DNA of 64,000 nt from Euglena gracilis (GCA_039621445.1 CP154954.1:37681703-37745702), one strand, 5' to 3'; shown: positions 1 to 38,100, counted from the stretch's first letter. The notes: generated by a model not told the origin, from the sequence alone. A program made the numbers and translations.

Positions 1-714
1 AGCAACTGGATATCAGTTCTACCATGGTCTTTGTTTTATATCAATACCCTACCAGGGTTGGTTTTACCTCACTCCCCCTATAAATTAGATTTCGGACGGG
101 ACCCTCCGGCCATAGGGGATGTCCCTTCGGAGAGACCCGCCCGAACGAGTGTCAGTTGCGAGACCTGGTTTGCAAAAGTAGAAAATCTACGTTCTGCAGT
201 CCAGAAGCGCGTGACTGATATTCATGCAACCAAACGGAAATCGTTTTTGCAGAATTTCAAGTCACCTGTGTATAGCCCCGGTGACCGCGTGTGGGTGCGG
301 AATATCCGTACTCGCATGCAGTCTTCCAAGCTGGACCCCCTCTGGCTCGGCCCCTGTGAAATCCTAGAAAGACTAGGTACCAGCGGGCGTTACAAGGTTG
401 CATTACCGAATGGTGTTGAGGACGTTCATATGGACGACTTCAAACCATACCTGTCGCCACCGGATGGGAAACCCATCCCGTGTCTGCACTTCAAACCCCG
501 ATCCAGATAACCTGAGACGGACGACTTTGTAGTCGATAAAACTATCGATCACAAAATCGACAAAGGTATGCACCTTTGGAAGGTCCGCTGGAGAGGGTAT
601 GGGCGCGAGGAGGACACTTGGGAGCCAGCAACCAGTTTTCTTGGGTATGTCCAACAGGATTGGAAACTGTGGAACAAGAAGCATAATATTGATGTTTCCA
701 TGACAAGTTTTTGA
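1..714 (+). pseudogene. pol: pol C-terminus: integrase end plus chromodomain
   Basis: ORF 31-510, then in-frame stop at 508-510, then FVVDKTIDHK...WKVRWRGYGREEDTWEP chromodomain, stop at 712-714. Confidence 0.92.
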
Positions 715-875
715 GAACGCATGGGAAACCCATGTTGTTTTCTCTTCTTTTATCATTGATTCTTATCATTCTTTCTTTCCGCAGACTTTTTAACAAATAA
801 TACTCAAGCGGTTACCCTCACACACCTTACAACCAACAACCGCAACATCCCACCGTACCGACCCCGGGCTGTATC

Positions 876-3800
876 ATGCTGCCCGGTGGAAGGGAGCCAG
901 GCGGAGGACCGCCTTACCACCCCACCACTCACCCTCAACCTGACCAGTATGCGTACCGATACGGTACGCAGCCACCTGCACGGACTGCGGCTCAGGGAAA
1001 CCCTGAAGCCAGCAGCAGTGGCAGGATGACCCAGATGCCCGCGGAAGCGCGGCCATCTCAGTCATCAGGCTCTCGTCGCCTCCCACCGTATGCGGGTGTG
1101 ATGATCCACCGCACGGCGGAGACGATGAGCCGGGTTATGCAAACCCGGCACCAGACCACCTAACCCAGGCATTGTGGGATGACCACTGCCGTAAAATTTT
1201 GACTATCGCGAATACCCCTCCAGCCCTGTGGTGTATGTGCGCCCAGGCGACGATGACCGGTGTATTACACCGAACCGGACGCGTCGGGATTCGCGGCAGA
1301 CATTACCATGCGTGACCTGGGCGTGGAAGTCCCGCCACAGGTCGCACGGCAAGTACCACCAGTTGGCACTTACACCGCACATTTTCGTGCTCACTCCCCC
1401 GGATTACCCGAGGAAGAGACAGTGGAAGCACCTGTCCAGAGTGAACACCCACGTGTGAAAGAAAGTATTTTTCGATCACCTGAGCGCATGCCCTGGCGGG
1501 ATTATCCTGCGCAGGAGCATGTGTCTCAGTATACCGTCTCTGGGGACTACCCCCAGGAGGCGCCAATGCCACGGGATCAGTACGTATATCCACCTCAACC
1601 CCACCCAACCATACCTGACCCTATCCCACGACGTCCTGCGGAGGGAAACCCTCCTCCGACGTCTGACACTGCCCGAAGCGCTCGTCCGCGGGAAGCCGCG
1701 GCAGCGCCTCGTGCGGCACCAGTTCCCCAGGTACGGGATGAACCCGTTAACCTGTGGACTGGCCGGCCGTTTGAGACTGAGGAGGAGCGTCAACAGTATG
1801 AATATGCTGTGACGATCCAACGACAAATCGCACGTCGCCCCCCTGTTTCCGCTGGCCAGGGATACCCTGCCCGGGCGGAAATGACACGGGAAGAGCGCCA
1901 GCAGTATGATGCTGCTGTGTCGGCTCTCACAGGAGTCCCAGCTCCATCACGATCAAGTCAACCAGCGCGACAGCAGGACGTTGCTGTGGCGGAAGCGCCT
2001 CCAGCACGGCCCACAAGCTCTGCCGCCGGCAAGCGTGACCGCGGCCCGGAAAATCTCACGCCGCAGCCACAGCGCCGCTCGCCGAGGTCGGAAAATACGC
2101 CCGCGGCGATGCACGTCGACGCTGAGGAGGAAGCTCTGCCAGCGCCAGACGTGACGGCAGAACGGACACGTCGGGAAACCCGAACATCCCCAGTCGCACC
2201 AGTTTACTCGAATCGTGGTGACGCTGAGCAGGAATTTGCTCGAACGCCAAGCACGGAATCCGTGACTTACCCTGTGTTTACGCCAGAAGACCCAGAATAC
2301 TGGGATTACTGGGCAACATTCGATTGGCTGTCTAACACAAAGGGTAAGGGTAAAGGTAAGGGCAAGGGTAAGGGGAAAGGAAAAGGCCAGGAGAAAGGTG
2401 GGAAAGCCCCACCTGGCAAAGGCGGAAAAGCCGCTTGGCCAACTCCAGGCAAAGGCGGAAAATCTGCCGGACCCCCAGAAGGCAAGGGCGGAAAAGCCGC
2501 CGAACCTTCGAAAACGAAGGACGATGACGTTACTGTAGTATTCACCTACCTGCAGGAGACCTGGCCGAAAATCGACGAAGATCTCCGGCAGTTTACACAC
2601 GCAAGCAACGTGATCCATCGACCACCGGATGCGGTGCTCGAAGTGGTGCAGAATCGTATGTACGATCACTGCAAACGTTTTTTCTACAGTTCCGAACTTT
2701 ATGCGTTTGAGGCATACCCTCATTCGGATGAAGTTGCACTGGACCGGATGTCCGGTTTCTGGGAGCTGTGGTTCTGGTTGGGATACCCCTGCCAGAACTT
2801 CGGCATCTTTACCGACCGAAACGGTCATACGTATGCCGACTGTTTGGGAACATGTCCTGACGACGACACGTTCGTAGCACAGTTGAAGGAAATCTTCAAC
2901 CACATGTATTCCGTCGGAGCACTGGGAATCCAGTGGAAATATTACCCCCTGCCGGAGAAACTCCAGGCGCAGGCTGCGGTAATGTTCACGCGCAACCTCC
3001 AAGTATACTTGGACAGCATGTATGGCAGACTGTTCAAGGTACTGGATGTGGACCTTGCGTACCCCCAGCGGTACAAACTGGAATGCCAGTTTGCAAAGAA
3101 GTTCACATTGCTGACTTCTGGGGTTTCGGAGAACGCGGAAACCGCCTCCGACTGCCGAAAGAGCCGGCAGCCAGCCGACCAGGAGATTCCTCCTGCATCA
3201 GTGCCGGAATCCCCGGATCGGAACGCAAGACCGAAAGGTGCTGAAACAGCACAGGCAGAAAATATTTCTGTTGCAACAGTACTGGCACCGGGTGTGGATT
3301 ACCTACGTCCTGGAAGTCTACATTTATTTCCTGGAACAGATGACCACTGATGTGGATATCCACAGGAAGTGGTTACCTCGGGGATCCACCGAGGTGGACG
3401 CCAGACCTCATGACCCAGACCGACGCAGGATGAACCTGCGGCCGGAATGGGAGCAGGCAGAAAGTGGCCTGCGGGATCACCTGGACACCCAGTTCGGGGA
3501 TATCCTCGACTGGAAGGAGTTCGAACCTTTCTTCACAGCACGCGAGGTAAGCCACTCGGTATGCGGTCCCATTGCCTGCTTTCCTGGAAGACACAGGAGG
3601 GCAGGGTATGGGATGGAACCTTCGATCGCAGTGGGAAGACCTCTGCCTGATCAGCGAGGACGAGCCGCAACCTCCACCCGGAAGCTGGGTGAGAGCGTCG
3701 TGGCCGCCTCCATACCCCAACTCTGACAGGAGTGAAAGTATAAGCTTTTACCGGCTGTCCGATGCACAAGGGTGCTACAGAAGCGGAAAAGACCCGCGCA

Positions 3801-6319
3801 CTTCAGTACAACTCCACACAGAGGACTACCCTCCGGAAGCGGAGGAGGAGGAAGAAACGGTCGCTATGGCCGAGGATGAACCTCAGCCAGTGGAACCCCC
3901 GGCACGGGAAACTCGTAGCCCATCGGTAGTGATGCTGGACACTGTGGCAGAAACTGCCCAGCGCCCAGGACCGCCGACTGGTGAAATGACGCCTGTCCCA
4001 CTGTCGCCAGCCTCACTGGGTACGACGGGCAGACCGACTCCTCCGCGGGAAAACCCGCCGGAGACGGTGCCCCACACGCCTGAGGTATTACGCCTCAAGC
4101 CCCCTGTTCCCGGGGAAACCCCGTTAACAGAGGAGTTAAATGAGGAGCCCACCTCAGGTGAGGAACGACGCACCTCGCTAGGCGGACGCGTACTCGGTGG
4201 TTTGCGGTCACTCATCGCAGTTGTCACCCCACGTGGCACTGCGGCCAGTTCTTCCACAGCTGCGGCGGAAGCTGCCCAGCCGACTGAAGACACACATGAC
4301 ACGACAGCCATGGTGGAGGATGAACCTTCCCCAGCGGCGGCGCCACCGCCGCTGTCGGAAGCGACACGGACGGAAGGCGAACAGACAGCAATGGCAGTGG
4401 AGACAACAACAACCGTGCCGGTACAGGATGAACCTGTATCAGCACCGGTAGCGCCAGCCGAGGCACGGGATGAACCCACACCTCAGCGCACATCCATAGC
4501 CACTGCACCAAAGCATCCGGGCACACGGACACCGCCGCCTGAAAAGCAGGCCGAGCGGACGCCCATGCCCCCACCGCAGGCTCAACCAGCGCGAAGTGCG
4601 CAGGGCAAGCCTACATCTACACCATCACCCACGGCTACCCCTGGGAAACCCACGGAAGCTGCGAAGGAACGCGTAGGACGACACTCAGCTCGGGAAACCC
4701 CTGCTGAAGGTCAACGACGCTAGGTGTCGGGGAGAAGACCCCCGTTCCAAGCGTCACCACGCACCTGGGCAAGCAAGCGCGACGCCGATCGGCGGCCCTC
4801 GGATGCTCCGGAAACCGGAAGCCCGAAGGCCCCGGCAAAATCAAAGCCGGGCGCCGCACCTTGTGAGCCCGCACCGAGATCTGGTGATCAGCCCCCACCG
4901 AAAGGCGGTGGTGGTGCTGGCGGCCAGAGTGCTGCATCCTCTTCTCGGGGATTAACCTCGGGACAAGGATTCACGCACGTCACATCATCCGGCTATGGGA
5001 AAACCTCACAGCCGAAACCTTCGTCAAAGGGGCAGGGAAAATCCCGCGCCTCAACAGCCGAGACACCTTCAGAAGACGAAGTTATCATCGACTGGAACGC
5101 GGTCAATCAGGATGACCCTGACATTCATGACCTGAAAAACAGGTACATGATGATCGCACATAAATTGAGAACAAAGCAATGCCTTAACTGGTGGATTGAG
5201 CAACTGTTCTGTCAGGGCCTAAAATGGTACTTTGATCAGAACGTGACCTGGAATTATTACAATTCCAGATCCCCCCGTGTTTTGGCCCAATACTTCGGTG
5301 AGGAATTCCTCATCGACAAAACAATGGGAACCCGTTTTGTGTGGCTTTTCACTGTGTGCCACAAGATGTATAACAGTGCACCTGACCTGGGATTACCCCT
5401 CGTCCATGTGTGCAACCCTGTGGATCGGAAATAGTTCCACAAGGATGTATACATCCCCAAATGTGCCGCCTTGGTATGCGCCAAGTGCGTGGACAGTTGG
5501 ACCCACAAGCACAATTTTAGCTACACCGAGCGAGACGGTACGAATGTACCGATACTCTGCGTCAACTGCCTTCGAGGTACCTTCTAGCAAACTGCGGAAG
5601 GCGCAGTACGCACAATCGTGCCAAGTGCCCAGAAGCCACTGGAGGAATACTCCACCTTGAACAAAAAGTTCAAGGACTTTTTCAAGTACTCCAACCTCAA
5701 GCTGGACGACTACCGCCACACGGGAATGGCCCGTGGGTGGCAGATCGACATTGGGGCGATACGCCTCGCTGCTGAGGAAGCAGGGGTAAGATTACCTTAC
5801 ATCTGGGAGACAGCGGACAGGGAAAAGATATTTTTCCGCCTGTACAAAACCCAGGACCGAAACGGTCGCTGGTGCCTGCCACAATGGCCACCCGAAGAAC
5901 ACGGGATGACCTGGAAAGACTGGCTTGGGGCCGTATTACGACCCCATACAGTCCGCGCGGAATGTGCGTATCACATGCCGATTGACTTCCACCCGGGGAA
6001 TGCCCCGCAGGTGTCAGCCAGTCATCCACGGATGAATCACTTCATCTGGCCAGCCACTCTGCCCAGGAAATTCTGGGAGAAGCAGCAATGGTTCCTCGCG
6101 GAAAGAGCGAGTGCAACCAAGCACACAGTCCCCGAAGGATGGGTTCGGGACTGGGTGGCACCTGATTTCGAATATGAATCGCCAGAAACCTGGCTCGTAG
6201 ATAGGCCACCACCACCACAATTCCAGATGGTCCTTCTGGAAGATCCCTTGGACTCCCGCCATGATTATTGGCGGCTGGAACGGATGTACTGCCGAAACGG
6301 CATTACCAGGCTCATGTAA
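876..6319 (+). pseudogene. Accessory ORF of family A (~1,800 codons, frameshifted), unknown function
   Basis: ORFs 876-1163, 1260-3350, 3238-3726, 3572-4723, 4724-5434 and 5618-6319 join into one frame when compared with copies at 44917-50394 and 29555-32216; Pro/Thr-rich spacers, KG repeats, W/C-rich blocks. Confidence 0.8.
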
Positions 6320-7191
6320 GGTAAGTGCCTTCATGGAGCCCGGACATCCATATACTATACAAATATATATACATTGGTAGCGGAAATCGCTGAACAGCCC
6401 TGGGATGAACCTGGGTCTGTGTCACTCTACGCTCTGGATGGAAGCATCCGAGAGCCCACCCCCCCCCCCGCCACGAGCCCCCCTCTGCCAATGGCCATCC
6501 GGACGGAAACCGTCTGCAAGAGGTAATCGCCTCTTATTGCGTCGTGAAGGAGCTACTGCTGTGAAGACCTTGGCAGCCGGGAAGCCTGGCAAGCCGCTAA
6601 GTGACGCACAGCACACAGCGCGCACGCCGCAAAAATAGGCCAACTTGTCACTTTTCGGCCCTAAGGCCCTTAAGGCTGCCAGACAGCAAAAATTCTGTTC
6701 TGGCCTAAGCCAGCCTCCCTCTCCACCCAACTTTCCCCCCACCCCCGCAAAGCTGTCGCCGGCAGTCGGTTTTGTATGTAGGCTTTTGTTTCCTAGTGCG
6801 GATATGACCGCCTAGGAGCCCTATCCGAGTATGACCAGGATAGGAGTTTGCCCCCCCTTCCACACCTCTCCCCGCAGGTTTTCAGCGAATCGCTTGACCA
6901 ACCCCGCGTGCCTTTGGCACACCCAAAGCGGGTGGATGGGACACTTTGTCAGGAAACTTGCCAAGCCCCGTTTCCCACAGTGGGCTTTTTCACACCCCAC
7001 CTAAGTCGAAACGGCTGATAGGTAACCGCGAAACGCGGCTAACCTTTTGCGCGTTTTTGGGCTTTGGGTGGATGCCACTGTGCGGAAAGGAGAGACACCG
7101 AATGGAGAAGTGAACCCCACCTAGGGCAGCGTCAGATATCCTGACTGGACCTGGGAAACCCTGGTCCATGAAGGAAATCGGGCGGAGCCCT

Positions 7192-7201
7192 GGGAGGGGG
7201 A
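7192..7201 (+). other. Polypurine tract (PPT)
   Basis: GGGAGGGGGA directly before the LTR start TGTGTACC; same at 44048-44057 (-). Confidence 0.88.
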
Positions 7202-7629
7202 TGTGTACCAGGCACGTCCCAGCTCTGTAGGATATCTGCAGAGTGGGTTCTGTGACGGTGGCACCACTGTTGAAATCCACAGCTGGTAGGATCGTGGCAG
7301 ACCCCTCTGGGATCTGCCCCTGGACACGTCAGCACTTTTCTCTCCTTCCCCCACAGGTGGTATTCTTTACTCTCACAATCTCAAAGTTTGACCATTGGTT
7401 TTGTCAGAGGGAAAAACCCTCGGAACAGTCGAACTTGATCTCAGAAGAAACTTCTGAATCTTTGCTTTGTGCTTTGCTTCTTGGGGAGTTGGGAAGAAAA
7501 GGGGAAAACCAGTTTTCGTTACTCCAAAGACTTTTCCCTACCATAAGTAGGCTGCGCACCAAGGCGAAAGCGAAAGGCTTTTACAGAAAGTTCCAAAAAG
7601 GGGAAAAGGGGAAGCTTTGGACGTACATT
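7202..7629 (+). repeat. 3' LTR of copy A1
   Basis: TGTGTACCAGGCAC...GGACGTACA(TT); aligns with 43619-44047 and 59943-60375. Confidence 0.92.
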
Positions 7630-17699: not shown

Positions 17700-18760
17700 C
17701 GGGGCGGAGAAGTCCCACCACCTCCAACGGAATCCCCTTGGCTGCACAATAATCCACCACATCCTCGTTGTAGGAGGGGAAGAAATCCGACCAAGGCAGC
17801 CATTGGAGATCCGTCGGATCCCAATTTTTCCACGTCACCTAAAATTCCGGGACCCCCGTTTCCGGGTGGTTCCGGCTGCCAACAATCTCCTCCACCACCC
17901 ACTCATCCGGTCCCACCTCTAGGGGGGCCGCCTTGTCATTGAAATAGAACAGTGGGAGGGGGTCGGTGGAGAACTCGTCCTCCGCGTGGAGCTTGAGTTG
18001 GCTCCGGTGTGTCTCTTGGCGGGCACCCGGGGCCAGCTCCACCACATATGAGTGGCGACCCCGGCGGGCCACCACAGTCCCCCTTTTCCACTTGGTGGCC
18101 AACTTGTCTGTGCCCGGCTGTGTCTCGGGGCGGGACCACACCTTGGCACCGACCTCCAGGGGAGGTGGGTCCCTTCTCCTGGCGTTGATGGAAGCCCACC
18201 TCTTGGCGTGCAGGGCGTTCAGGGTTGAGGCCACCTTCTCGTCCATAGCCCGCATCCGTGCCATGAAGTCGGCTGCCCCCTCGGCCTCTCGTGGGGGCTG
18301 GTGGGGCAGGCCTTGGAGTGGCCGGTGCCGCCCGAAGACCACCTCGTAGGGCGACAAGCCCGACTCTCCTGGCACATCGTGCAGGTGCCGGAGGGCCTTG
18401 GGTAACAGCACCACCCATGAGGCCTCCTTCTCCGACAGGTCAGTGATGAGCTTGGACAGAGTGTTCATCACCCGTTGGCCTGCCACCTCTGCCCGACCGT
18501 TGGCCTGGTGGTGGTAGGCCTGCCCGTAGGCACGCCTCACCTCCATGGCGGCGCACATTGTTTGCCACCAAGCCGAAGCGAAGTGGGGGCCACGGTCCGA
18601 GGTCACCACAGAGGGCACCCCGAACATGTCCCAGTGGCGGAACATGGCCTTGGCCACCACCTCGGCTGTAAGGCCCTACTTCTGGGGGGCGGCCACTGTC
18701 CACCCACTCTCACGGTCCACGCACATGGCCAGGTAATCATACACCTGGACCTCCTCACTC
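17700..18760 (-). pseudogene. pol: Integrase core plus chromodomain of family B (N-terminus deleted)
   Basis: CVDRESG, GVPSVVTSDRGPHF, HHQANGRAE, SPYEVVFG; chromodomain EWVVEEIVG...EF*VTWKNWDPTDLQWLP. Confidence 0.92.
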
Positions 18761-19199
18761 AGAACTCTTTGCCCTGGTTGGTGTTCCTCAGGTCCCCCCC
18801 TCCTTGCCGGCTGTTCATTCCCGAATTCATCCACGAAAAGATGGGCACGTGGGGAACCTCGCGTCTCCCGCGTTTCCAACCCAGGTACCCCAGGTCCCTC
18901 CCCTCCCATGACGATGGGACCTGAATCTCCCGAGGGGGCGTCCACAGGCCCCTCCTCCCCTGTGGGGTCAGGGCCAGGGCCCCCTGGCACTGAATCCTCA
19001 GCCCCCTCCCCCTCTGTGGGGCTGGGGCCAGGTCTGTGCTGTGCTGCTGTGTCTCTCCCACTGCGTGTTGTTACCGCCACGTGGAGTTCCTCCCGCCCGT
19101 GCGGTGTCCCGCATTCTCGCTCTTCCCTCCGTTCCTCTTCGATCATGGCCCTCATTGCCTCAACATCCTCCTCGCTCCCGTGGAGGCTGATGTCGGCAA

Positions 19200-20620
19200 G
19201 TGCCTTGGAGGTAGGATACGCCCATCTGCTGAGGGCATCCGCCACCACGTTTTCCTTTCCCGGAATGTAGACCACGTGAAGGTCAAACCGGGAGAACATT
19301 TCATACCAGCGTCCCCGCCTTCCCGCAGGTCCGCTGGGCGTGTCCAGGGTTTCCTTGGCCCAGGCCTCCAGGGACTTGTGGTCCGTGGGGACCAACACCG
19401 GCTGCAGGCCGATGTAGGAGGCCCATTTTTGGAGTGCCAGGATGATGGCGTAAGTCTCCTTCTCCCGCGGAGACCAGCTTTTCACCTGCCCAGCTGTGAG
19501 ATTTCGGGAGCAGAACGCCACAGGCACTGTTTTCCGTGTTGTGGCCTCCACAGCTGTGGGCATCCCCTCTGTTGGCTCCAAAAACTGTTCAAGTGCTGCC
19601 CCCACCGCCTTGTCGCTCGCATCAACCCGGAGAATAAATGGCTGGTCCGGGTTGATGGTGTGGAGCTCCAATCCCCAGAGGAGCTCCTGATTCAGGGCGG
19701 TGAAGGCCTCCCGTTCCACTTGGCCGAATTTCACAGGTTTTTTGCTGCCTTTTTTCCCTTCCACACGTCCCACCTTGAGGAGTTCCATCAGGAGGGCTGC
19801 ATACAGCGTATACTCCTTCACGTAGCTGGAGTAGTAGTTGGTGAAGCCCAGAAAGCCCCTGAGGGCTGTGATCGTGCGGGGCTCCTCCCACTTCTCCAGC
19901 GCCATGAGTTTGCCCGGTTCTGGCCTCCGTTTTCCTCCCCCCAGGATGTGGCCACAGAATTCCACTTCTCTTACGAAGAAGCGGCACTTGTTTTTGTCCA
20001 CGACTAGGCGGTGTTCCCGCAGTGCCCCTAACACTCGCCTGATGTCCTGGTCGTGTGCCTCCATGGTAGCTTCCTCCGTGCCACACCACTCTGTCCCCAC
20101 GATGATGTCGTCAACGTGTGGGTTGGCGACATCAGCCACTTCCCTCAGCGAGTAGTCGATCACCCGCTGGAAAATGGCCAATCCATTTTTCAGGCCCATC
20201 ACGACCACACACCACTGCTTGGACCCTCGGGGGGTGCTGCAGCAGGTGTATGGGCGTGAGTCTTCGTGCAGGGGCACCTGATGGAAGGCATCCTTGAGAT
20301 CAAGGACGGAGAACAGGTACCTCCGTCCCTGGTTCACCAGGATGTCTTCAATCCTGGGGAGGAGGTAAGCATCCGTCACTGTGGCCTCGTTTAATGCCCG
20401 GAAATCCACAACCCCACGCCACTTCCCCTGTTTCTTGGCCACCACGAATGTGGGGCTGCTCCAGGCACTTGGCACCCCCTCTCCCACCTTCTTGCCCCGA
20501 ACCCTCTCATCCACTAGGTCACACAAGGCCCTGTGCCTCTCCCCCGTCAGGTGGATGGGCCTCTGTTTCTTTGCCACAGATCCCGGTTTTAATTCTATTT
20601 TCCCTTCCCCCAGGGGCCCC
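19200..20620 (-). pseudogene. pol: Reverse transcriptase plus RNase H of family B
   Basis: WRGVVDFRALN, LDLKDAFHQV, MGLKN, HVDD (YxDD mutated); RNase H VDASD...EKETYAI...TDHKSL...VADALSR. Confidence 0.95.
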
Positions 20621-21079
20621 CGAACGATTCTTTCCCCCCAAATCCTGTCTCGGAGAACCTCCCCCTCGAATTCCCTCCGGAGGGCTGCCCGGAGCTCCTC
20701 AGCCTGCTGGCTGGTCACCTGCTCCCCTTCGGGAACAAGGATGACCCCTTGGGCTGCCCGTGCTTCGACCTCCCGGGCTGCCCGCAGGAGTTCCCTGGCC
20801 ACTGTCTCCTGGGTCGCCTCGTCCTCGTGCAGGGGGTTTTCCTCCCACTCAGGCTCCTCGGTATCCTCCCCCAGGGCTGCCTCCGGCAAAGCAAGCCGCA
20901 GTGCTCTGACTTTTTCCACCATTTTCAGGTATTTCACTCGCTTTTGTGCCTTTTTGGTGGCTGCTGGCTGAACTTGCTCACCCTCCGCATCATGTCCCCG
21001 AAGGAGGACCACCTGCTCTCCCCTCAATGCCAAGGCTCGGAGATGTGGAAACACCCCGAGCTGGTTTTCCTCCAGCCAC

Positions 21080-21390
21080 AGAAAGCCGATGATGGCCTCC
21101 ACGTGGATATCTGCCTCGTAGAAGGAGGCTGAGGCCGTCCACAGGGCCCCTTCCCCCTGACCCAAGCCCTCCTCCCGCCGGAGGACCAGGCCCGGGTTGC
21201 CTCACGTTCCCCCCCTTCCATCTTGGCTCCACTACCCGTCACCAGGGACAGGGGCTTGGGGGCAGGCAGGAGGTATGTGCTGGGTAGCATGCCTCTTCGG
21301 ACCAGGTTCACCTCTGCCCCTGTGTCAATGAGGGCGTTGATGAAGTGGGTCTGTCCGTCTGGCCCCCTGGCCTGCACCCGCATCAGCAGC
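21080..21390 (-). pseudogene. pol: Aspartic protease of family B
   Basis: ALIDTGAEVNLV (DTG at 21318-21326); AIIGFLWL after a frameshift. Confidence 0.9.
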
Positions 21391-21519
21391 TGCCGTTCAC
21401 TGGCACCCTGCCCCACCTCACGGAGCAAGACCGAGGGCACCCCTCGCTCTGTCTGGGGGTCCCGCTCTGGCTCCGGAGACCCGGCAGCGTGGGCCTCCGG
21501 TGCCGGTGCTGTGGCCAGG

Positions 21520-22115
21520 TCACGGATGAGCGCCTCTAGGATACGATATTTCAGGTGCCTGGGCAGGTTTTGGTGTTTGCTGCTGAGCCGAATTTTGTGC
21601 CGTCCCTTTCGTCCCCCCTCCGGTACTGGGCTTTCCAGGTTGGTGCAGGTCCGGTCGTCACACACCCGTGGCCGGAGACCCAGGACATGGGGGCTGCCCC
21701 ATATCCTGGTGGGCTTCTGGTAGCCCCAGCCAGCGTACTGGCAGTAATCCACGTCCACGTGTGGGATCCCTGCCATGTACCTGCGGGTCCGCAGGTAACC
21801 GTACCCGGGGTTTTTCAGCCACCACCGCCGTGGGCGGAGGTATCTGGTGATGGCCAGGGCCCGCTGCACCAGCCGATCAGCCAATTTTAAATCTCGTTCC
21901 CTGGTGGTCAGCGCCAGGCTGAATTCGGTGCAGGGGACCCCGCACACCACCACCTCAAAATACCCAGGCTGGAACTGTTTTTTAAAATTCCATTTCAGCA
22001 CGTCAACACAAGTGTCTGGCCGCCACCTGGGGTCCACGTCCACCGACGTGACCTGGTAACCCAGGCTGCGGTAGACGTCCCCTACTGAACCTGTCCCGCA
22101 GAACAGGTCCAGCAT
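21520..22115 (-). CDS. C5-cytosine DNA methyltransferase domain within pol
   Basis: Motif I MLDLFCGTGS, II VDVD, III CVDVL, IV CGVPCTEFS (catalytic PC), VI WWLKNP (ENx-like), DYCQYAGWGYQKPTRIW, C-terminal YRILEALI. Confidence 0.88.
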
Positions 22116-22199
22116 CCGCCTGGGCTGGTCCGCTCTCCCCACCTGCCCCAGGTGTGTCAGCTTGACCTCCCCTGTGGCCCCCCCGGTCCCTGGGGGTGG

Positions 22200-23820
22200 C
22201 CCTGAAAAATGTGTCCCGAACCTGGTTTTTTTTCTCCCGTATTACGGGTGACCAACAGGGTTTGCGGCCGGATTTCCGGTACCAGGATTCACCTTCACCA
22301 GAAACTTCGCGATTCCGACAAGAATCCGGAAAGGATACGCTTGGTGCTCGAGCGTACCCAGGCCCAAAACCACGGAATCATTGGGCTCCTCAGAAAGACT
22401 TCAAGGGCACCATCACAATCGCGAACAAGGTGAAACCACAATGGGACGGTGATCCAAGCACATGAACACAGTTTTTCCGGGACTGGGAGTACTACTTGGC
22501 ATTAAAAGGGCCAACCCAGGACACAAACCCGGAGGTGATCAAGATGGAATTCATCGATTGCCTCCCTAGGGATGAGAAGGACCGCACACGACAACTTGTT
22601 ATTCGCTACCGCGTTTTCCTTGATGACCTGGTGGAGCAATACGCCTCTACCAGTTCAAGTTTGGTCGCTAGGATTACCCTAGAAACCAAGTGGCGGCAAT
22701 GCGCCCCACCCGATCGCAAGTGGAAGTCCATTGCACTTTGGTATGTCAAATGGTTAGGACTTGCCGCAGAAGTGGATGAACTCGGTGAAAAGCAAAGGCG
22801 CGAACAGTTTGATGCTGTTCTCATGCATTTCACGCCTAGCCTCATCAAGGATATCCTAGGTGAGGAGTTGGCGAGTCATCCAATGACTCTTGACCAAGGC
22901 TGGAACTTCCTTTCCAAGCAATTGAAGCTATCACAGCTTCTTGGTCAGATTCAATCCGCTTATAACGCACACCCAACCGCTGGATTACCGGCTGGTTCGG
23001 TGAACGCATTGCAAAATCACCGGTTTCACCCACTTCACCTACCACGGGATCGAAAACACAACATCCGCGTTCTTCGGACGAAGCCACCGATAAAGTGTGC
23101 CTTTTGTGCAACAAAGCGGGACATATGTCCTGGGAATGTCCTAATCCTGAAGCACGTAAGCGTATTCAGAGTCCGCGAGGCTCGACCCCATCACGGGGTT
23201 CGGGTTCCTCTGCTTTTTCACGCCAATCGGGCAATTGACGGTCATCGGGTCCCCGTTCCGGTGGTATTAGCCCCCGGATCCTGTTCCGCGATGAGCGGAA
23301 ACACGGTACCCCTCGGGGTAGGTCACCCGGCGCCCCGGCCAAGAAGCGTGATTCTTATCGCGAGACATCGCGATCGCGTTCGCGAAGCGGATCAACTTCT
23401 TCGCGATCGTCATCGGAAAAAACCCGATGCTCCGGTCATAGTCGACGGGATACCCGCTCACCACGACGGTTTGACGGGAAATGCGGAAACCGATCCCCCC
23501 GTTACCCAGAGTCGCGACACAAATCTCGGTGTGGATCGAGTCATAACCACTCATCCAAATGTCCGCGTTCTCCTTCTCCTGGCCCTGGCCAACATCATCG
23601 CGGTATGAATCGCGGTGACAAGGGTCACTCCTCCAACCGCCATAAAGTCGGTTTCAAGATATCTTCTTTGGAGGATGACACCCCGGCTTCGGGCAGGGAG
23701 GGGGATGAGACCACGGATACCGATTTCGACGAGGCCTGCATGGCGGTGCCCACGTTGAAATCCGTGTATACCTCTAAAAGGCCCATATCCGGCTATTCGG
23801 CCGGTTCGGACCTGGAGTAG
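22200..23820 (+). pseudogene. gag: gag C-terminal part (capsid-like core, CCHC knuckle, RS-rich tail)
   Basis: KPQWDGDP, KMEFIDCLP, knuckle near 23097-23140, LEDDTPASGREGDE...GSDLE-TAG. Confidence 0.85.
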
Positions 23821-25259
23821 GGGAGCCCGAGGTCCGAGGGCACGGACCTGTGGGCTGATGAACAGATGGAGGTAGGACCTGATCATCCCTACCCCCCCCT
23901 GCCCATTTGCCTTCCTGGTCGGTACCCGAAAATTTTCGGGTCCCCCACCCCCACTCCAACTTTCCGCTCGGAATGTTGTCCAAAGTAGGAAAGGGTTCAT
24001 GGGAAAGCTGGCAATAAAACGTATTTTCGGCAGACCGTTCACTTTGCCTACCCCCCATGGAAGTTTTATTCCAAGCGGAAAAACAAAATTTTTTGTCAAA
24101 AGTCAAAATTCTCATGGACACTGGTTGTCACATTGCACTACTTTTTCGGTTCGGGTTGATACCAACGCCCCTCTTGGTGCAAGCCAGGAAGCCGATCAAA
24201 ATTACGACGGCTGACAACACTTCCATGCGCGCTGGTGAAATGATATGCTTTTTGGATATTGTCCTACCCCTCATCCCCAAGCACCACTCAAACCCCCCCC
24301 AACCGCAAAATTTTCCGGATACCTGGGGATATGCTTCGGGAGTCCATGGTTCTGGCGTAATTTTGGGATACCCCTTTTTTACGTCAGCACCGGCTGGTAG
24401 TGGATTGCCACTCCCACGGTTTGCGAACGTCACCAATCTCTTCATTGCCCCCCAAACCTTCATTACCTGTGGCGTCAACCCCGACGACCACCAGTTTTTC
24501 CACACCGTTTCAAAATTTTTTACCCCGTTACCAACCACACCAACCAACGTTTTCCATACCGGGTGTACCGAGAAAGTTCACCCCCTGCCCATTGACACAC
24601 CAACTTCCGTTCCCCATGGGGCAGGGCAAGCGAGTAGCGGTACCCCTCTCGTTCCACTGGGTTACAAGACGAAAGCCCAAAGGCCTGAAGTTATAACGGT
24701 GTCGAGTAGTCGCCCAGCTGCACTAATACCCCGTTTTCCACCAGATGTACCGCTTTCAGACACATCTGCACACCCCCAAACAGCTACAAAAGCGCATCCC
24801 AACTTTTACACACACCCTCACCAGACCAACATGCGCGACCAGGACCATTACTCCGATACTTCCTTCCAATGCGTGCACTGTTGGAGAATTTCCGCCGAGC
24901 CAGATTTGGATTGTGGATGTTTAGTCCAAACACCAACACTAATCCCGATTTCGGTCACCCATACACTTGGTTGCGGATCGCAATGCGCGACTGTACATCA
25001 AGTGCTCCAACAACGAGGTATTGCCTTGTTGTTTGGGACCGCAAAATCCGTGTCACACACCTCCCCCACCTCCATCTGGCACGATATGGACTGGGTATGC
25101 ACCCATCCAACCCATCAACCCTTGGGAATGCCAATCAGGAGTGTGGATGACACACCCCTGACCTATGTTTGCGGATCCCTGAATTGCGTTACTGCTCTTC
25201 AACCCGCGAACCAGGTCGACACCTACGGGATGCGTGTATGGAACGCATTTAAGTTTGGT

Positions 25260-25670
25260 CAATACCGTATTTTGTAGGAATGGTTCTCCAAAATCGCGGC
25301 TTTGGCTGGTTCCTTCGATTTGTCGTCGGAAATGGATGCGTTTTCATCAAAAGCACATGCGCGCTTGTTGCAATATTGGTCGCGACACTCAAACGCGTTT
25401 CTAAAATTTTGGGGTGATACAGTGCTCTGGATGCTCCCTCCCCCAAAACTTATCCTGGATGTGGTGGAGAAAATCCTCCGCGATGAAGCGCGAGGAGCTC
25501 TCCTCATTCCCGTCAATCCGAATGCGGATTGGTTTCACCAATTATCCTATGTGTGTTTTCGTTGGTTGGATTTACTCGCTGATGTACCACTATTTGAGGA
25601 TTTTTGTGGTTTATTATTACCACCCGTTGAAGAAATCATTTTTCACGTTTGTTTCTTTGACGCATTCGGT
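25260..25670 (+). CDS. Dam/DIRS-type N6-adenine methyltransferase-like domain between PR and RT
   Basis: YRIL.EWF.KI...EMDAFSSKAHARLLQYWS..SNAFLKFWGDTVLWMLPPPKLILDVVEKILRDEARGALLIPVNPNADWF follows the DIRS-MT pattern DLFAS..N..L..Y.S..DAF..W....Y.xPP..LI..VL.KI...LI.P.W..WF. Confidence 0.75.
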
Positions 25671-26708
25671 ATATCCGATCTGCGTGTGTCAAGATACCTT
25701 GGTACGGATGGGGATGCCACACCCTCAACACACATTCCTGCTGGCATTGACAACGCGACCAACACCCCAAGTCTGCTGACTATTGTTCGCGAATTACTCG
25801 CTAATTCCATGGTGTACTGGATAACCCAGTTTACGCCTGCGACGTCGACCCCGCGATTCGCGGTCCGTTCGGTGTTTGCAAAATTGAGCTCAAGGATGGC
25901 GCTAAACCCATGTACCGGAAATTCTTCCGTTGTTCGGGTGAACGCGACAAGCTCTCAACGAGATGATTGAGACGCTCATCCAGCGGAAGTGGATTATCCC
26001 TTCCGAGAGGAATGGACATCACAAGCCTTTGTGGTGCCCAAACCTGCTGACCAGTCTGGTCAGAAGAAGTGCAGACTAGTGCTGGATTACCGGTACCTGA
26101 ACTCCCAAATGAAAAATGACCCCTTCTCGTTACCGCTGATCGAGGATTTGATCACAAGACAATCGGATAACTGGTCGTGGTCAATCTTTGATCTGGATGA
26201 CGGTTTCCACCAGATGCATTTGCATCCGGATTCGCAACCGTATACGGCTTTCGTGACATCCAAGGGTGTGTACCAATGGACGGTACTCCCCATGGGTGTT
26301 AAGAATGGCCCAGCACGATCCAGTGGGTTTTGCGCGATTTACCGTTTGCTCTGGTGTACATCGATGATGTACTGGTGGGAACCCAACCACCATCCGCGAA
26401 AAATGGCAAGGATATCCTCGAACTGCATTATCGCGATGTGCGGGCGGTATTGTCCGCGTTCAAAAAGCATTTGCTCTTTGAGAAGGGATCCAAAATGCAA
26501 CTGTTTCGCAAAATTATTAAGTTTTGCGGGAATATGCTGAGCAACTGGCAGCGTAAAGTGCACCCAGTAAGATGGAGGCCATTAAGAAATGGACTCCTGA
26601 GGTCATTAAGACCTTAACGCATTTAAAGGGATATTTTGGGATTAGCCCAATATTACGCGATTTACTTGAAAGATTTTGCGAAAATCGCGGTACCCCTAAC
26701 CCGAAAGC

Positions 26709-27566
26709 TTAAAATTTGGACACCCGATAACGCAAAAGTCATTTGGTATGACGAAATGCGCGAGGCCTTGAATAAAATCAAGGACTTGCTCCTCGGGAAC
26801 GTGGTTCTCGATATCGCGGGTTCATACAAACCGTATTTCCTGGAAGTCGACAGCAGCGATTACGCTGTTGGCGGGGTTCTTAGTCAGCATAATGCGTCGA
26901 ATGAACTCCGACCTGTGGCTTTCTTCAGCAGGAAGCTACAGGGCGACAACGGGAAAGGACAGGTTAAATGGAGCATTCGCGAAACGGAGACATATGCCAT
27001 TGTGCTTATTCTCCAGAAATTCCGCAGCTGGATAGCCAGCAGCTTGGTCCAGATACTCGTGTTGACGGATCATGAGAGCCTTCAACACTGGTATACCGAG
27101 GACCTAAACAACGCCATGTCATCAGTGGGCAGAAGATTTAAAATTTGGACACCCGATAACGCAAAAGTCATTTGGTATGACGAAATGCGCGAGGCCTTGA
27201 ATAAAATCAAGGACTTGCTCCTCGGGAACGTGGTTCTCGATATCGCGGGTTCATACAAACCGTATTTCCTGGAAGTCGACAGCAGCGATTACGCTGTTGG
27301 CGGGGTTCTTAGTCAGCATAATGCGTCGAATGAACTCCGACCTGTGGCTTTCTTCAGCAGGAAGCTACAGGGCGACAACGGGAAAGGACAGGTTAAATGG
27401 AGCATTCGCGAAACGGAGACATATGCCATTGTGCTTATTCTCCAGAAATTCCGCAGCTGGATAGCCAGCAGCTTGGTCCAGATACTCGAGTTGACAGATC
27501 ATGAGAGCCTTCAACACTGGTATACCGAGGACCTAAACAACGCCATGTCATCAGTGGGCAGAAGAC
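26709..27566 (+). repeat. 429-bp near-perfect in-frame tandem duplication of RNase H
   Basis: Units start at 26709 and 27138; KIWTPDNAK...SSVGRR occurs twice in ORF 26636-27688; only about 2 substitutions seen. Confidence 0.95.
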
Positions 27567-29554
27567 GCCGATGGCATGAGTTCTTGAGCCAGTTTATCCT
27601 GGTGGTTATCTATACCCCAGGTCACACACAAAAAGTGGCGGATCCTCTCAGCCGAGCCCCCCTGGTAGTATCCTGGGAACCCGGATGAGGGTGACGCGAC
27701 TTTTCATGGCAGCCATGAGGCTGACCGGTTCGCACGTCGATCCGACGCTGCGGACAACATGCTCGATTCACTACCCGTTTCCTGGGTATATCGCAGCATC
27801 GCCATTTCACCATTGCGTGGAAGGCGCCGGCGTGGACGCACTGCCGGACCCCGTCGCATTACGCGTACGGAAACTCCTACCCCCCTATTTTTCCGCGAAT
27901 GGGATTATTCGCGTGACCCTATATAGTACCATTGTGAATAGACTTCGTAATGGTGAATCCATAGAGAATTACTCTCTATCACCATTGCACCTTATTTTCC
28001 GGAATGATTCTGGTTATAAATATTGTATGCCCCAAGACCTGGTTGATGATGTGATTTTGAGCTGTCACAACCATGGCCACCCTGGGGCCCCCAAACTTCT
28101 TTCTCTAGTGGGTCGCAAATATTGCACAACCCTGAGTGAAAAAAGATTTATATTCGCGCTGTTTGCAAATTTTGCAACGGTGCCAAATCTGTCAGGCTGT
28201 GAAACCGCGCAGAGGTACCCCCCTGGTAGGATGGACTTTTAACTCGTACCACCACACATTTTTACGTCCCTCTGCAATGATTTTCTCGAACTTGAAACTT
28301 GCAAAGGATCAGTCGACAAAATTTCCGATTACTTTTTTGTTGTCGTCTGTCGGTTGAGTGGGTACATAGTAGCCATTCCATGCCGGAAAGCGGGGTTGAC
28401 AGCCCAAACTTTGGCATCCATATTCCTGGAGATGTGTCTGCTTAATGGGTTTACCGAACGAAATCCGTAGTGATCAAGATCACTTGATCTCTTCGCGGTT
28501 TTTCACAACTTTGTGCGATTTACTCGGCACTAAGCAGCATTTTTCAACTATATACCGCCAGAAAGGCAATGGTAGAGCCGAGGCAGCCGTGAAATCTGTT
28601 GTCAATATGCTTCGCCTTTCACTGGCTGACTCGGGTAAGAATTGGTTATCCGTTCTTCATTGGTGTTTATTTTACGTCAATACCTTGCCAGGGTTGGTAT
28701 TACCACACTCGCCATACAAAATTGTTTTTGGACGGGATCCTCCGGCCATAGGGGATATCCCCTCGGAAGTACCCGCCCGAAGTAGCGTCAGCTGTGAAAC
28801 GTGGTTTGCAGAAGTGGAATCACTCCGACCTGAAGTCCAATCACGTACCACAGAAATTCATTCCAACAAAAGGAAATCGTTTTTACAAACTTCAACACAC
28901 CTGTGCATAGTTCGGGTGACCGCGTGTGGGTACGGAGTAACCGCACCCGCATGCAACCTTCCAAGCTAGATCCTCTTTGGGTCGGACCATGCGAAATTTT
29001 GGAGAGGTTAGGTAGTAGCGGGCGATATAAAGTTGCCTTGCAGTTGCCTTGCCCAACAGGATTGAGGACATCCATATGGACAAGTTCCCACCGTACCTAA
29101 GCACCCCGGACGGAAACGCAATCCCCTGCCTATATTTCAAGCCCCGTTCCAGAGTACCTGAAACGGACGACTTTGTGGTCGATAAGATAATAGACCACAA
29201 GGTCGACAGGAATGTGCCCTACGGAAACGTTCGTTGGAAATGGTATGGGCCAGAGGAGGACACTTGGGAGCCAGCATCCAGTTTTGTTGGCTATACCCAT
29301 CAGGATTGGAAGCTGTGGAACAAGCGCAGTAACGTAAACATAAACATAAACACTTTCTGAAACGATTTCGTTTTGGAGAATGCGTGCGTTTTATGTGAAT
29401 GTTTCGTGTTTATGCCCCCCTGCACTTCCTCCTTTCTCTATCTTTGTCGCAGAGTTTTTTGATTAGGATAGAAGCCTTCTTTTTCAGTGCGCCAGCACAC
29501 AAACCGACTGACATCAAAGTTTCCCTTCGTTGCAGTCGTTGTTCGGGTAGCATC

Positions 29555-32216
29555 ATGCTTCCTGGGCACTGACCTGGACCACGTTCCACTATGGCCGCAG
29601 CCTTCTGGCGCGCCATACCCCCAGTACCCTCAGTATGCTGAGGCCCCGATTCCGGGTGCCCCACATGCTGAGAGGGCTTCAGCCCCGGTATTCGCCGCGG
29701 ATACCAGCAGCCGGTCCGCATATGCGGTACCAGATGCATCTGCCGTCCAGCAGCCGGCATCTCAGCCACCAGGGCAGCACAGATCGCGCCTGCCCCCGTA
29801 TGCGGGAGAGATGACATTCCGAACTACGAAGACGTTGGAGCGGGCGATGCGCATGTGCGCACACTCCCAAACGGAGCCCTTTATGCAAGCCCTTTGGGAT
29901 GCACACTGTGCTCAGTTGTTGGTGGTAGCCAACCCGCCTGTGGCTCAGTGGTGACCCTGTGGTCAATCCCTGATGACGGGGAGACGTTTTTTCTCGTCGG
30001 CATCCAATTCCGGATTCCAGCATGGAAAGACAGTGATGGACCTGGGCGTGTATGTACCGCCCATGCTGCAAACGCAGACGCCGGTGGGATCACACACCGT
30101 GCAGATGCGTGAGCACACGCCCCTACCGGTACGTGAGGCTGTGCATGTCCCACCTGGGATGAAGGCAGGTCTGGCAGTATTTCCTGCCACCCTGAAGCGC
30201 GACAGGACTACGGAGAACCTTACCACACAGCCCAGGCGACCCAGCCCACGGGACGCGGAAGGCTGTGTGGCGATGCAGGTGGAAGCCAGCCAGGATACCC
30301 CGGCTGGACGACCACCGGCAGAGGCACAGGGAGGTGATGGGCCGTCCTTTTGCCGCAATGCCACCGCCGATCCCTCCGGTATGGAAGGAGCCGCGACCCC
30401 CTACGTCGAAGCCAAGCCCACGCCAGGTTCTTAGCCAGCGCCCAGCCACGCCATCACCGCGACATGCAGCGGAGCGGCCAGGTCCCTCCCCAGAGATGGA
30501 ATGGGAAGGAACCGAAACGACTCCTGCGGCACCCAGCGCCCGACCTTCTGGTATTCGCCGGACGGGAAAGGACACAGGCAAGGCCGAAGGCAAAGGCAAG
30601 GTAGAGGGCAAAGGCGTGGCCAGCAAAGGGAAGGGTGAGGGCAAAGGTGAGGGTAAAGGTAAGGGAACAGCACGTGTAGAAGAACCAGCAGAAGTCCTAT
30701 CGGACTTGGAGCATATGCTCAGGTTCAAGGAGGAGCTGGAGGACGAAGGCTGGCGAAGGCAGCATGGTTACCATGTTGCAGGAAACCGCCCCTTCACCCC
30801 TCCATAAGCAGTCATCGATGTGTATTACATTACATTAGGTATTACACCACACCAAGAACACAGTCAGACTATTCCATTTATGGAATAGATCTGTACTCCT
30901 TCGAAGGTGAAGGTGGCAGACCCTTGCTGGGTGTCCAGCCGGGTTTGTGGGAGCTCTGGTTTTGGCTGGGATACCCCTGCCAGAACTGGGGACTCTTCAG
31001 CGACTCGACTGGTCGCATTTACCCGCACCAGTTGGGATTTCGGGAGCAGCGTGTGTTGGCCCGAAGGCTGAAGGCAATCTTAGACGGTATTCATACAGTC
31101 GGCCCCCTCGGCCTGCAGTTGGAATTCTACGCACTGCACCCCGACATCGAACGCCTGATCGAGGTGTTGTGGTGCAACAACCTCCAGGTGTGGCTGGTGA
31201 GCCATTACGGCTCCACCTTCCGCGTGAGGCGTGTTTCGCTGGCTTACCCGCAGAGGTATGACCTGTGTTGTAAGTACTGCCGGCATGAATTTCCTGTCGA
31301 AATTCTGGGGATTCGGCGTGCGCGGAAGTCCTCCACCGCCTCGGGATAACCCGGGCCTGGAGATGGGACGCCGCATGCTTATGCATGTGTGCCGCGACGC
31401 CCCGGATGTCCAGGGCAGATGTCGCCGAGTCCACAAGCAGCGTATTTTTATGCTGCAGCAGTTCTGGTGGCGAGCCTGGACCACCTCTGTCGTGGAGGTG
31501 TATATACATCTCCGTGACGTCCGTGACGATAGGCCTGGTATGGAAAGCCTGCCACCGGATTACGGTGACGCAATCGAGGGTCCTCGTCGTCGGATTATCG
31601 GCCACCTGCGCCCCAACTGGCACCTGGCTGATATCAGCCTGGAAGAACATTTGCGGCGACAGTTTGGCGGTACCATCGACCGGGAGGTATTCCTTTCGCT
31701 GATTTTGTAACCCGCAGGCCATCCTCGAACAGCGTATGCCGATTCTGACATGCGTTCAGGAGTTCAAGGAGTGCTTTTTCGAGGTCTGTGAGGACACGCG
31801 TTACCGCGGATTCCTGGGCCCGAACAGGCCTGCCAACGCCTGGGTGCAGCCATCATGGCCGCCACCCTGGCACAACAGCGCCAGCAGCAGTATGCTGGCC
31901 TTTTACAGGCTGGCGGACGCACACGACTGCCGATGGCAACCCGACGATCCACATTCGCCCGAGGATCTGCGCGCCCTCATCGCCCCAGAGGATGAACCTC
32001 TGGCGCGAAGCAGACGTGAGGCGTCAGTCGCTTCCACCACCGCGATCCCGCGGCAAGAGGAACGCGAACGCAGCCCCTCTGTCACCATCCTGTAGGCGGC
32101 GCCGCCGTCTCCGACAGGAACGGCTGTCTCCTTGATCTCTGCCCCGCGAGCGGCAGGGGAACGATCAGTTTTATCGGCCCCCGCGGCGTCTCCCGTCTGT
32201 CCACTGGTAGGTGAAG
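29555..32216 (+). pseudogene. Accessory ORF of copy A2 (diverged homolog, 3'-truncated)
   Basis: MLPG start, RLPPYAG, QALWDAHC, KG repeats, GLWELWFWLGYPCQNWG, LAYPQRY, SWPPP..FYRLADA all shared with 876-6319. Confidence 0.82.
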
Positions 32217-37600: not shown

Positions 37601-38100
37601 CAAACGGGGACGGGGACCCCACAACCACTCACAGGTACGTTCAGCCAAAGCAGCCAGCAGTGGGGGAACGAAACACCACACCCAAAAATGGAAGGAGGAG
37701 CTGCAGCACTGGGGACCGTTAACCCGGCTTCCCTTGTGGGGCAGCTCATCCAGTAGGAACTGAAAACCGCCTTGACACCACTAATCGCCGAGCTGACTCG
37801 ACAGACAGAACAACGACAGACTGTAGTGCCGACCAGCCCAGCACTTACGACAAACCCGACAAACCTAGCACCACCACAGCCAACCCAGCCGACTCAACAG
37901 ATTTCACAGCCACTGACGACACAACGAAACCCACAGACACGGGCTCGGAGCTTTTTCGTGTGGGCAGACGAAATCGAAACTCAGAACACAGCCACAACAA
38001 CCTGTGTGCGCCAGGTCACGTTCCCTCAGGGAGCACGATTTTTCGGCAGAGGGGAGGAGTCGTGCCGGGGGACCAAGTGGCCCATCACAGCCTTTTTGCT
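34680..38100 (+). mobile_element. Probable 5' part of another retroelement: TGTG-starting leader plus long Q/T/E-rich coiled-coil (gag-like) frame
   Basis: Starts abruptly inside the satellite with TGTGATTC; ORFs 35086-35976, 36076-36450, 36396-37376 and onward; ~78-bp repeats at 35290-35480 and ggggaccc repeats at 37400-37730; no diagnostic motif. Confidence 0.45.

Follow-up and report, generated by a model that had tools for sequence, protein, structure and literature searches.

A formerly selected coding region of about 5.4 kb, decayed in three copies of a Ty3/Gypsy chromovirus of Euglena gracilis

Introduction

The extra genes that long terminal repeat (LTR) retrotransposons carry rank with the most poorly understood components of eukaryotic mobile DNA, and most of those that have been characterised are either env-like genes or short antisense open reading frames (ORFs). 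A stretch of 64,000 nucleotides from the Euglena gracilis genome (GCA_039621445.1 CP154954.1:37681703-37745702, hereafter the window), which is repeat-rich eukaryotic DNA, carries at positions 876–6319 a region that lies between the chromodomain and the 3' LTR of an LTR element. A preliminary description of the window had reported this region, here called ORF3, as a sense-strand frame of about 5.4 kb that recurs in three copies. Is ORF3 a gene, and, if so, what kind of gene is it?

Comparison of the window with itself revealed three copies of one LTR element. A1 (1–7627, plus strand) continues with its 5' part beyond the window edge, A2 (about 22389–32216, plus strand) is a diverged copy, and A3 (43621–60373, minus strand) is a whole element of 16,753 bp. 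Here, we report that ORF3 is a real coding region that was formerly under purifying selection and is now dead in the three copies. We consider it most probable (probability about 0.72) that ORF3 is the pseudogenised form of a genuine third gene of a very large chromovirus, with about 1,810 codons, and that its product was an intracellular, non-membrane orphan protein with an accessory role rather than an env protein.

Results

The ORF3 frame and its ancestral state

ORF3 is located between the chromodomain and the 3' LTR in sense orientation and ends about 0.9 kb before the 3' LTR. In A1 it spans 876–6319 (plus strand; about 1,808 codons when read through) and in A2 29555–32216 (plus strand). 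The A3 counterpart, 44917–50394, was found to be on the window's minus strand; its earlier description as a sense-strand frame was not confirmed in this respect. Conservation of the coding region in three copies was upheld, but the continuous 5.4-kb frame was found in none of A1, A3 and A2; the damage in A3 and A2 is no less than that in A1, and A2 retains only the first ~55% of ORF3, also frameshifted. The stop-to-stop ORFs of A1 are 801–1163, 1007–1315, 1257–3350 (697 aa, the longest), 3115–3726, 3551–4723, 4724–5434 and 5588–6319, and the conserved motifs described below fall in differing frames within each copy.

The alignment of A1 and A3 over 700–6400 comprised 5,659 columns with 429 mismatches (92.4% identity) and 26 indel events, 19 of which were not multiples of three. 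The frame path was traced through these events by checking each break against the other copy, A2, and a database fragment, P0003. In A1, the path of 1,808 codons runs through 876–1138, 1139–1258, 1260–3089, 3092–3139, 3142–3552, 3554–4720, 4724–5431, 5435–5584 and 5588–6316, and it passes five frameshifting indels (at about 1138, 1258, 3090, 3140 and 3553) as well as in-frame stops at three sites (4721, 5432 and 5585), all of which are sense codons in A3. The A3 copy has its own set of breaks, about 11 frameshifting indels together with 11 stop triplets; none is common to A1, and the 11 triplets are all sense codons in A1 (1,785 codons compared). At each frameshift, the other copy keeps the frame that matches A2 or P0003; near 1138, both A1 and A3 are damaged, each differently. 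Furthermore, the A1 deletions at 1138 and 1258 are missing from the contigs of three of four public runs. At the 3' end, a 1-nt difference places the A1 stop at 6319 and leaves the A3 frame 23 codons longer. Because no break is common to two copies, an open ancestral ORF of about 1,810 codons is the parsimonious reconstruction, and the common ancestor of A1 and A3 probably possessed it. The continuous frame proposed in the preliminary description is thus probable for the ancestor, but in the three copies themselves the frame is broken.

A2 matches A1 over 825–3937 only, and nothing in A2 corresponds to A1 ~3940–6319, because a satellite array with a unit of ~217 bp begins at 32264. This array replaces the 3' part of A2, and therefore the C-terminal 45% of ORF3, with its C-terminal block, is known only from A1 and A3. 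Arrays with this period of about 217 bp, with 80–91% identity between units and in both orientations, occur at 32264–34085, 34423–34679 and 41050–41745.

Coding signal and selection

Searches with tblastn using pieces of the A1 ORF3 product detected A2 with E=7e-29 (136 aa, 43% identity), 1e-18 (129 aa, 37%), 5e-10 and 1e-7, whereas blastn between the A1 and A2 ORF3 regions detected only three short spots of DNA similarity (four high-scoring segment pairs of 35–64 nt). In a six-frame control with A1 1956–3089 against A2, the sense frame scored 114+35 bits (E=1.6e-31) and the other five frames at most 59 bits; the runner-up with 59 bits was the codon-aligned antisense frame.

The substitutions between A1 and A3 also showed codon periodicity: mismatches numbered 108, 120 and 178 at codon positions 1, 2 and 3 (of 1795, 1799 and 1797 sites, respectively; chi-square 22.4, p=1.4e-5). 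Position 3 had the most mismatches in all four sub-regions and in GC and AT site classes alike, with counts at positions 1/2/3 of 27/34/45 in the N-terminal part, 26/30/43 in the Lys/Gly tract and block 2, 33/29/53 in the linker at 3801–5074 (p=0.009), and 22/27/37 in block 3 (p=0.11). The non-coding tail and LTR differ between A1 and A3 by 6.8%, which is near the values for positions 1 and 2 (6.0% and 6.7%) and below that for position 3 (9.9%).

The ratio of non-synonymous to synonymous divergence (dN/dS; NG86 method) was 0.44 between the A1 and A3 ORF3 regions (1,270 codons) and 0.28 between those of A1 and A2, the latter over 553 codons of aligned blocks that had been chosen by protein similarity, which biases it low, and with a saturated dS of about 2. 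Both values differ from the ~1 of an unselected sequence, and the earlier claim that the region had been selected was thus supported. The integrase and chromodomain gave 0.08–0.22 for the A1–A2 pair. In the same comparison, the dN of ORF3 (0.57) was 2.5–6 times that of the neighbouring pol (0.09–0.23); fast non-synonymous divergence of this kind is usual for host-interaction proteins.

The host element

In the 5' to 3' direction, A3 consists of an LTR, a primer binding site (PBS), ~3 kb of extra 5' sequence, gag (zf-CCHC), pol, ORF3 and an LTR. Its LTRs (60373–59945 and 44045–43621) are about 425–429 bp long, have TGTAC...GTACA ends, and are 91.4% alike. The 10-nt PBS, TGGTAGCAGA (59942–59933, minus strand), begins 2 nt after the 5' LTR and resembles the 3' end of an initiator tRNA-Met. 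The Pfam matches in the gag-pol region of the element appear in the order zf-CCHC (E=2e-5), RT_RNaseH (E=7e-44), Integrase_H2C2 (E=3.4e-6), SH3_Tf2-1 (E=1.9e-7, in A3) and then Chromo; this succession of gag zinc knuckle, RNase H, integrase zinc-binding domain, SH3-like domain and chromodomain is the domain order of Ty3/Gypsy. The Chromo match (PF00385) in A2 29031–29360 had E=1.2e-7 and 32 bits against a cutoff of 25.1, and its A1 counterpart, 511–714, is 67% identical. No Pfam match for RVT_1 or a protease was obtained in the broken pieces of the element. In A1, a non-coding tail (6320–7203, plus strand) with a polypurine tract at 7192–7201 follows ORF3, and the 3' LTR (7204–7627, plus strand) also has TGTAC...GTACA ends.

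A1 1–7627 and A3 51269–43621 (minus strand) match at 91.3%. The identity of A2 is 75–78% to A3 within gag-pol and 76.6% to A1 across A1 4–678. From the Pfam domain order, the PBS, the polypurine tract, and the LTRs that are 91.4% alike, we conclude that A3 is an old insertion of a chromovirus of 16,753 bp, and that the host element is a Ty3/Gypsy chromovirus of ~16.75 kb. No target-site duplication was recognisable for A3. Its insertion site is a GC-rich tandem repeat (42291–43729 and 60374–60400) in which both strands have several open frames, with Gly/Pro/Arg-rich translations; the same repeat motif is present on both flanks.

The end of pol in A1 (1–714, plus strand) comprises the C-terminal SH3-like module of integrase and the chromodomain, with the pol stop at 712–714. 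An in-frame stop between these two modules is common to A1 (508–510) and A3 (50760–50762, minus strand); it is a sense codon in A2 and in the contigs of all four public runs. The master copy of A1 and A3 may therefore have made an integrase product without the chromodomain. In the RNase H region of A2, a 428-bp tandem duplication (26709–27565, 99.5% identical) gives two RNase H matches in one ORF.

Anatomy of the predicted product

The product of ORF3, about half of which is low-complexity, can be divided into five parts (A1 coordinates, plus strand). The N-terminal part (876–2339, ~490 residues) is largely low-complexity sequence rich in Pro, Ala, Arg and Glu, in which RLPPYAG and QALWDxHC form conserved islands. 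It is followed by a Lys/Gly tract of ~60 residues (2340–2519), in which KG repeats precede four GKGGK units. Ordered block 2 (2520–3800, ~425 codons) has 37–43% protein identity to A2 and contains FWELWFWLGYPCQN, LAYPQRY..CxxC, LRPxW and SWPPP..FYRLxDA. An acidic linker rich in Pro, Thr, Ala and Glu (3801–5074, ~425 codons) leads to ordered block 3 (5075–6319, ~415 codons), seen in A1 and A3 only, which has a Cys/His cluster at about 5290–5584 that includes CAKC and CVNC.

The motifs listed in the preliminary description were recovered in the three copies where it had placed them. In the order A1, A3 (minus strand) and A2, MLPG is located at 876, 50394 and 29555; RLPPYAG at 1077, 50193 and 29787; QALWDxHC at 1166, 50077 and 29886; the KG tract at 2340, 48881 and 30625; [FL]WELWFW at 2757, 48465 and 30945; and LAYPQRY at 3054, 48167 and 31239. 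LRPxW lies at 3436 in A1 and 31606 in A2, with no coordinate listed for A3, and SWPPP..FYRLxDA at 3698–3746, 47537–47492 and 31853–31901. CAKC and CVNC are found in both A1 and A3, copies that are 92% alike, and CTVC in A3 only, again as described earlier.

The Cys/His piece at 5435–5584 (a 50-residue core) gave Pfam scores of 14.9 bits for zf-B_box (cutoff 24.1), 12.2 for Zn_ribbon_10 (24.2) and 12.0 for zf-RING_2 (27.3), with E values of 0.03–0.27; it thus reached the curated threshold of no B-box, RING or zinc ribbon family. The zinc binding suggested earlier was not substantiated beyond the CxxC spacing and these sub-threshold matches.

The N-terminus is not hydrophobic: judged by hydropathy alone, the first 87 residues, rich in Gly, Pro and Thr, have a maximum 19-residue Kyte-Doolittle mean of 0.07. 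No candidate for a membrane span was found in any of the nine ORF3 pieces, where the highest 19-residue mean was 1.08. Because no window exceeds this value and the N-terminus is not hydrophobic, the hallmarks of env, a signal peptide and a membrane anchor, are missing, in agreement with the preliminary description, which had seen neither a signal peptide nor a transmembrane segment.

Search for relatives and folds

Pfam searches with 8+8 pieces of ORF3 yielded nothing above threshold, and the matches at E≤1 were noise only. Three pieces compared with the sequences of the Protein Data Bank (PDB) gave nothing below E=0.18, and a word-based search of 5.8 billion proteins with blocks 2 and 3 found no match. 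When a four-row alignment of block 2 was used as a profile against 1.84 billion representatives, only P0002 (E=1.1e-4) and P0003 (E=5e-4) were retrieved. These are unnamed Logan fragments of 176–217 aa in clusters of two members; P0003 is a close decayed copy, and P0002 represents a third, more distant lineage that is 26% identical to A1. In metagenome contigs, a scan with the block-2 motif and another with integrase produced 213 and 188 pattern matches, and a scan of viral contigs produced 25; none of these were confirmed.

The best ESM Atlas match for the second half of block 2, a Peptidase_C48 cluster with a score of 0.76, was below the level of a lead and was rejected as noise. AlphaFold2 gave a mean pLDDT of 43.1 for block 2a (8-row alignment) and 32.9 for block 3 (3 rows), and these models were unusable for a fold search. 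Judged by the sequence searches, the ORF3 protein appears to be an orphan that belongs to no described family. The earlier statement that the family was not recognisable therefore stands, with no match to a described env or host protein.

Expression

A pyrimidine-rich tract (735–784, plus strand) that ends in CGCAG, a putative 3' splice acceptor, lies upstream of ORF3 in A1. The tract is ~82% pyrimidine, and CGCAG|A is invariant in all three copies (A1 780–784; A3 50489–50485, minus strand; A2 29448–29452). The acceptor-like CAG is ~90 nt before the conserved ORF3 start codon; no ATG intervenes, and in A1 and A2 the first ATG downstream of it is that of ORF3. The conserved start context, ATCATGCT, is found 161 nt after the pol stop in A1 (712–714) and 194 nt after the one in A2 (29358–29360). 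Because a conserved pyrimidine tract ending in CAG precedes a conserved start codon, this arrangement suggests that ORF3 was expressed from a spliced subgenomic mRNA.

Contigs of the four public runs, only one of which is on record as an RNA (metatranscriptome) library, were compared in 30 bins. Copies that were 88–99% alike covered 30, 25, 30 and 27 of the 30 bins. Coverage in the metatranscriptome run is no proof of transcription, because DNA may be present in it. In one run, the contig depth rose to about 1,068 over 2314–2570, the region of the Lys/Gly tract, against depths of one or two digits in 28 of the remaining 29 bins; this peak most likely reflects cross-matching of unrelated low-complexity sequence.

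Other features of the window

The extra 5' region of A3 (59933–56989, minus strand) comprises ~3 kb that separate the PBS from the portion of gag also found in A2, and contains ORFs of 261 aa (58690–59475) and 230 aa (57894–58586) with weak coiled-coil-type Pfam matches. Partial copies of this region occur at 62444–63995 (plus strand) and about 38938–39873 (minus strand), and its weak NPV_P10 match recurs in the ORF at 38938–39873, ~78–80% alike over ~180 nt. The region may represent a second extra gene upstream of gag; its mismatches with the partial copy A4 were spread nearly evenly over codon positions (12/10/10) and gave no guidance on this.

A different Gypsy-type element, GC-rich (62–68%), is located at 17839–22241 (minus strand), with an intact RT-RNase H ORF of 841 aa (18676–21201) and a fragment of an integrase core. 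ESM Atlas matches for the RT of the neighbouring element came from mixed phyla. The stretch 36001–38000 has a strong bias of A over T (AT skew 0.44) and includes a 348-aa ORF (36330–37376) with weak coiled-coil-type Pfam matches. Rfam and tRNA scans of the window gave no matches. The ratio of observed to expected CpG in the window is ~0.8, which argues against a heavily CpG-methylated genome.

Discussion

If ORF3 was a third gene of the chromovirus, it would have been open, and subject to purifying selection, for as long as the lineage was active, with independent decay following in each inserted copy. Translation would have proceeded from a spliced subgenomic RNA that used the pyrimidine-tract/CAG site at 783–784. 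As an accessory factor of the element, the product would have acted in trans: it would either have bound nucleic acid or ribonucleoprotein (RNP) through its basic tract and Cys/His module or have engaged host factors. The anti-silencing, targeting and RNA chaperone roles suggested in the preliminary description are conjectural.

Several points weigh against this interpretation. No copy in the window is intact, and the 5.4 kb may have held a pair of adjacent ORFs instead of one; the last 45% of ORF3, moreover, comes from two copies that are 92% alike, and block 3 taken alone gives a weak selection signal. The A1–A2 estimate of dN/dS carries the bias and saturation noted above. Hydropathy is a crude test for membrane spans, and the unusable AlphaFold2 models may leave room for a known fold. 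GT..AG was seen neither among the 10 joints listed from the contigs of the four runs nor in the seven listed "skip" joints, so that these contigs give no sign of introns or of the proposed splice; the latter, though, could not have appeared there, because the 5' leader lies outside the compared stretch. Finally, the GC content at third codon positions (GC3) is 0.60–0.69 in the ordered blocks of ORF3, higher than the 0.48–0.59 of gag and pol, and this would fit a foreign origin.

The last point bears on the alternative that survives best, although we regard it as unlikely: ORF3, or at least its C-terminal block, may be a captured host sequence, that is, a transduced gene fragment, which the element perhaps later recruited for an accessory function. 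Capture is a frequent source of additional ORFs in LTR elements, according to one study (PMC5408684), and block 3 is absent from what remains of A2. However, the tail of A2 is missing altogether and is hence uninformative on block 3 there. Neither the Pfam nor the protein and profile searches produced a host-like relative, no internal intron remnants were seen, and the frame path is collinear between copies. Furthermore, lineages with ~24% DNA divergence in pol have the first 3 kb of ORF3 in the same position.

That the region consists of at least two distinct genes (such as 876–~3900 and ~5000–6319), with a non-coding or fast-evolving spacer between them, also seems improbable. Such a division would be consistent with the retention of only the first part in A2, with the low complexity of the linker at 3801–5074, and with the lack of a copy that is open throughout. 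Against it, the A1 frame runs through 3554–6316 with only three private stops, and of the four parts it is the linker in which third-position mismatches are most in excess. Ahead of block 3, where no systematic search was made, neither an acceptor-like site nor a start-codon context was seen.

An env-like gene of the kind found in errantiviruses or Athila, which would make the element a potential endogenous retrovirus, is highly improbable. The slot after pol and before the 3' LTR, the possible splice acceptor upstream, and the fast evolution of ORF3 would all suit it, but the hydropathy profile would not, nor would a composition that is mainly Pro/Ala/Arg/Glu low-complexity. No env family was matched in Pfam at E≤1, and the sole viral matches in the PDB, astrovirus spike chains with E=0.18–0.34, were noise. 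The preliminary view that this slot holds something unlike env was thus corroborated by the absence of both env matches and env hallmarks.

We give almost no credence to the proposal that the real gene is antisense, as in Retand/Tat, with the sense frame as its by-product: A1 does have a 414-aa antisense ORF at 1953–3197, and long pol-to-3' LTR regions with antisense ORFs are described for plant Retand elements (PMC11963269), but this frame is the codon-aligned one that scored 59 bits against A2 (114+35 for the sense frame), the most variable site class is its codon position 1, and its A3 counterpart is broken into pieces of 166–211 aa. That there is no gene at all, and that the open stretches and motifs are remnants of neutrally decaying repeats, would account for the frameshifts and stops that fill the three copies but can practically be dismissed in view of protein conservation where DNA similarity is gone, the frame-specific signal, the codon periodicity of substitutions, and the 697-aa open piece.

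A former third gene of the chromovirus thus remains our preferred interpretation of ORF3, and extra ORFs in LTR elements are already known as a kind. ORF3 lies between the LTRs of its element and apart from gag-pol, has the same position in diverged copies, and shows a coding signal. It is set apart from the known extra ORFs by its sense orientation, by not being env, and by its length of about 5.4 kb in an element of ~16.75 kb. A survey of Tcn1-like chromoviruses from fungi and non-seed plants reports "additional ORFs with unknown function" and elements of up to >13 kb (PMC2864245). These elements resemble ours in having an extra ORF in an LTR-bounded, chromodomain-bearing Gypsy element, whereas the ~16.75 kb found here is beyond the quoted range and ORF3 measures about 5.4 kb. 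The plant Gypsy elements of the Retand group (Tat lineage) are described as having pol-to-3' LTR regions of 2.9–6.6 kb with antisense ORFs that mostly contain a TRP28 domain (PMC11963269). The element of E. gracilis shares a very long pol-to-3' LTR region (~6.5 kb), conserved extra coding capacity, and tandem repeats, which are frequent nearby; Retand elements, however, are non-chromoviruses with antisense TRP28 ORFs, whereas ORF3 is a sense gene in a chromovirus. The LTR retrotransposons of bdelloid rotifers are likewise described as having lineage-specific ORFs beyond gag and pol (PMC5408684). In errantiviruses and Athila, env or env-like genes are reported (PMC13524379, PMC2864245).

With these env genes, ORF3 shares the slot after pol, a separate start codon, and a probable need for a spliced subgenomic mRNA. 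Unlike them, it has no hydrophobic N-terminus, membrane anchor or env domain, and it is about three times as long as a typical env. Complex retroviruses express accessory genes from spliced RNAs, and these may serve as a working analogy, in that ORF3 would likewise encode a non-structural, fast-evolving protein 3' of pol from a spliced message, the splicing being putative here; there is no homology between them, and ORF3 is far larger.

A bolder proposition, which we consider rather doubtful, is that ORF3 is the first member of a family of chromovirus accessory proteins that are giant (~1,800 aa), disordered for the most part, and expressed from spliced subgenomic RNA. Such proteins would either provide an RNP scaffold, through the Lys/Gly tract and the Cys/His module, or counteract silencing by the host. 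If this were true, gene expression of a retrovirus-like kind would have arisen in a chromovirus lineage, along with a gene for host interaction that exceeds the lineage's own pol in length. Accounting for a third of its element, ORF3 is a sense-oriented, selected region of about 5.4 kb that has no detectable relatives and stands behind a conserved splice-acceptor-like site. Although the copies in this window are dead, which limits its present value, it would be a useful entry point to the non-env accessory functions of chromoviruses and to their expression.

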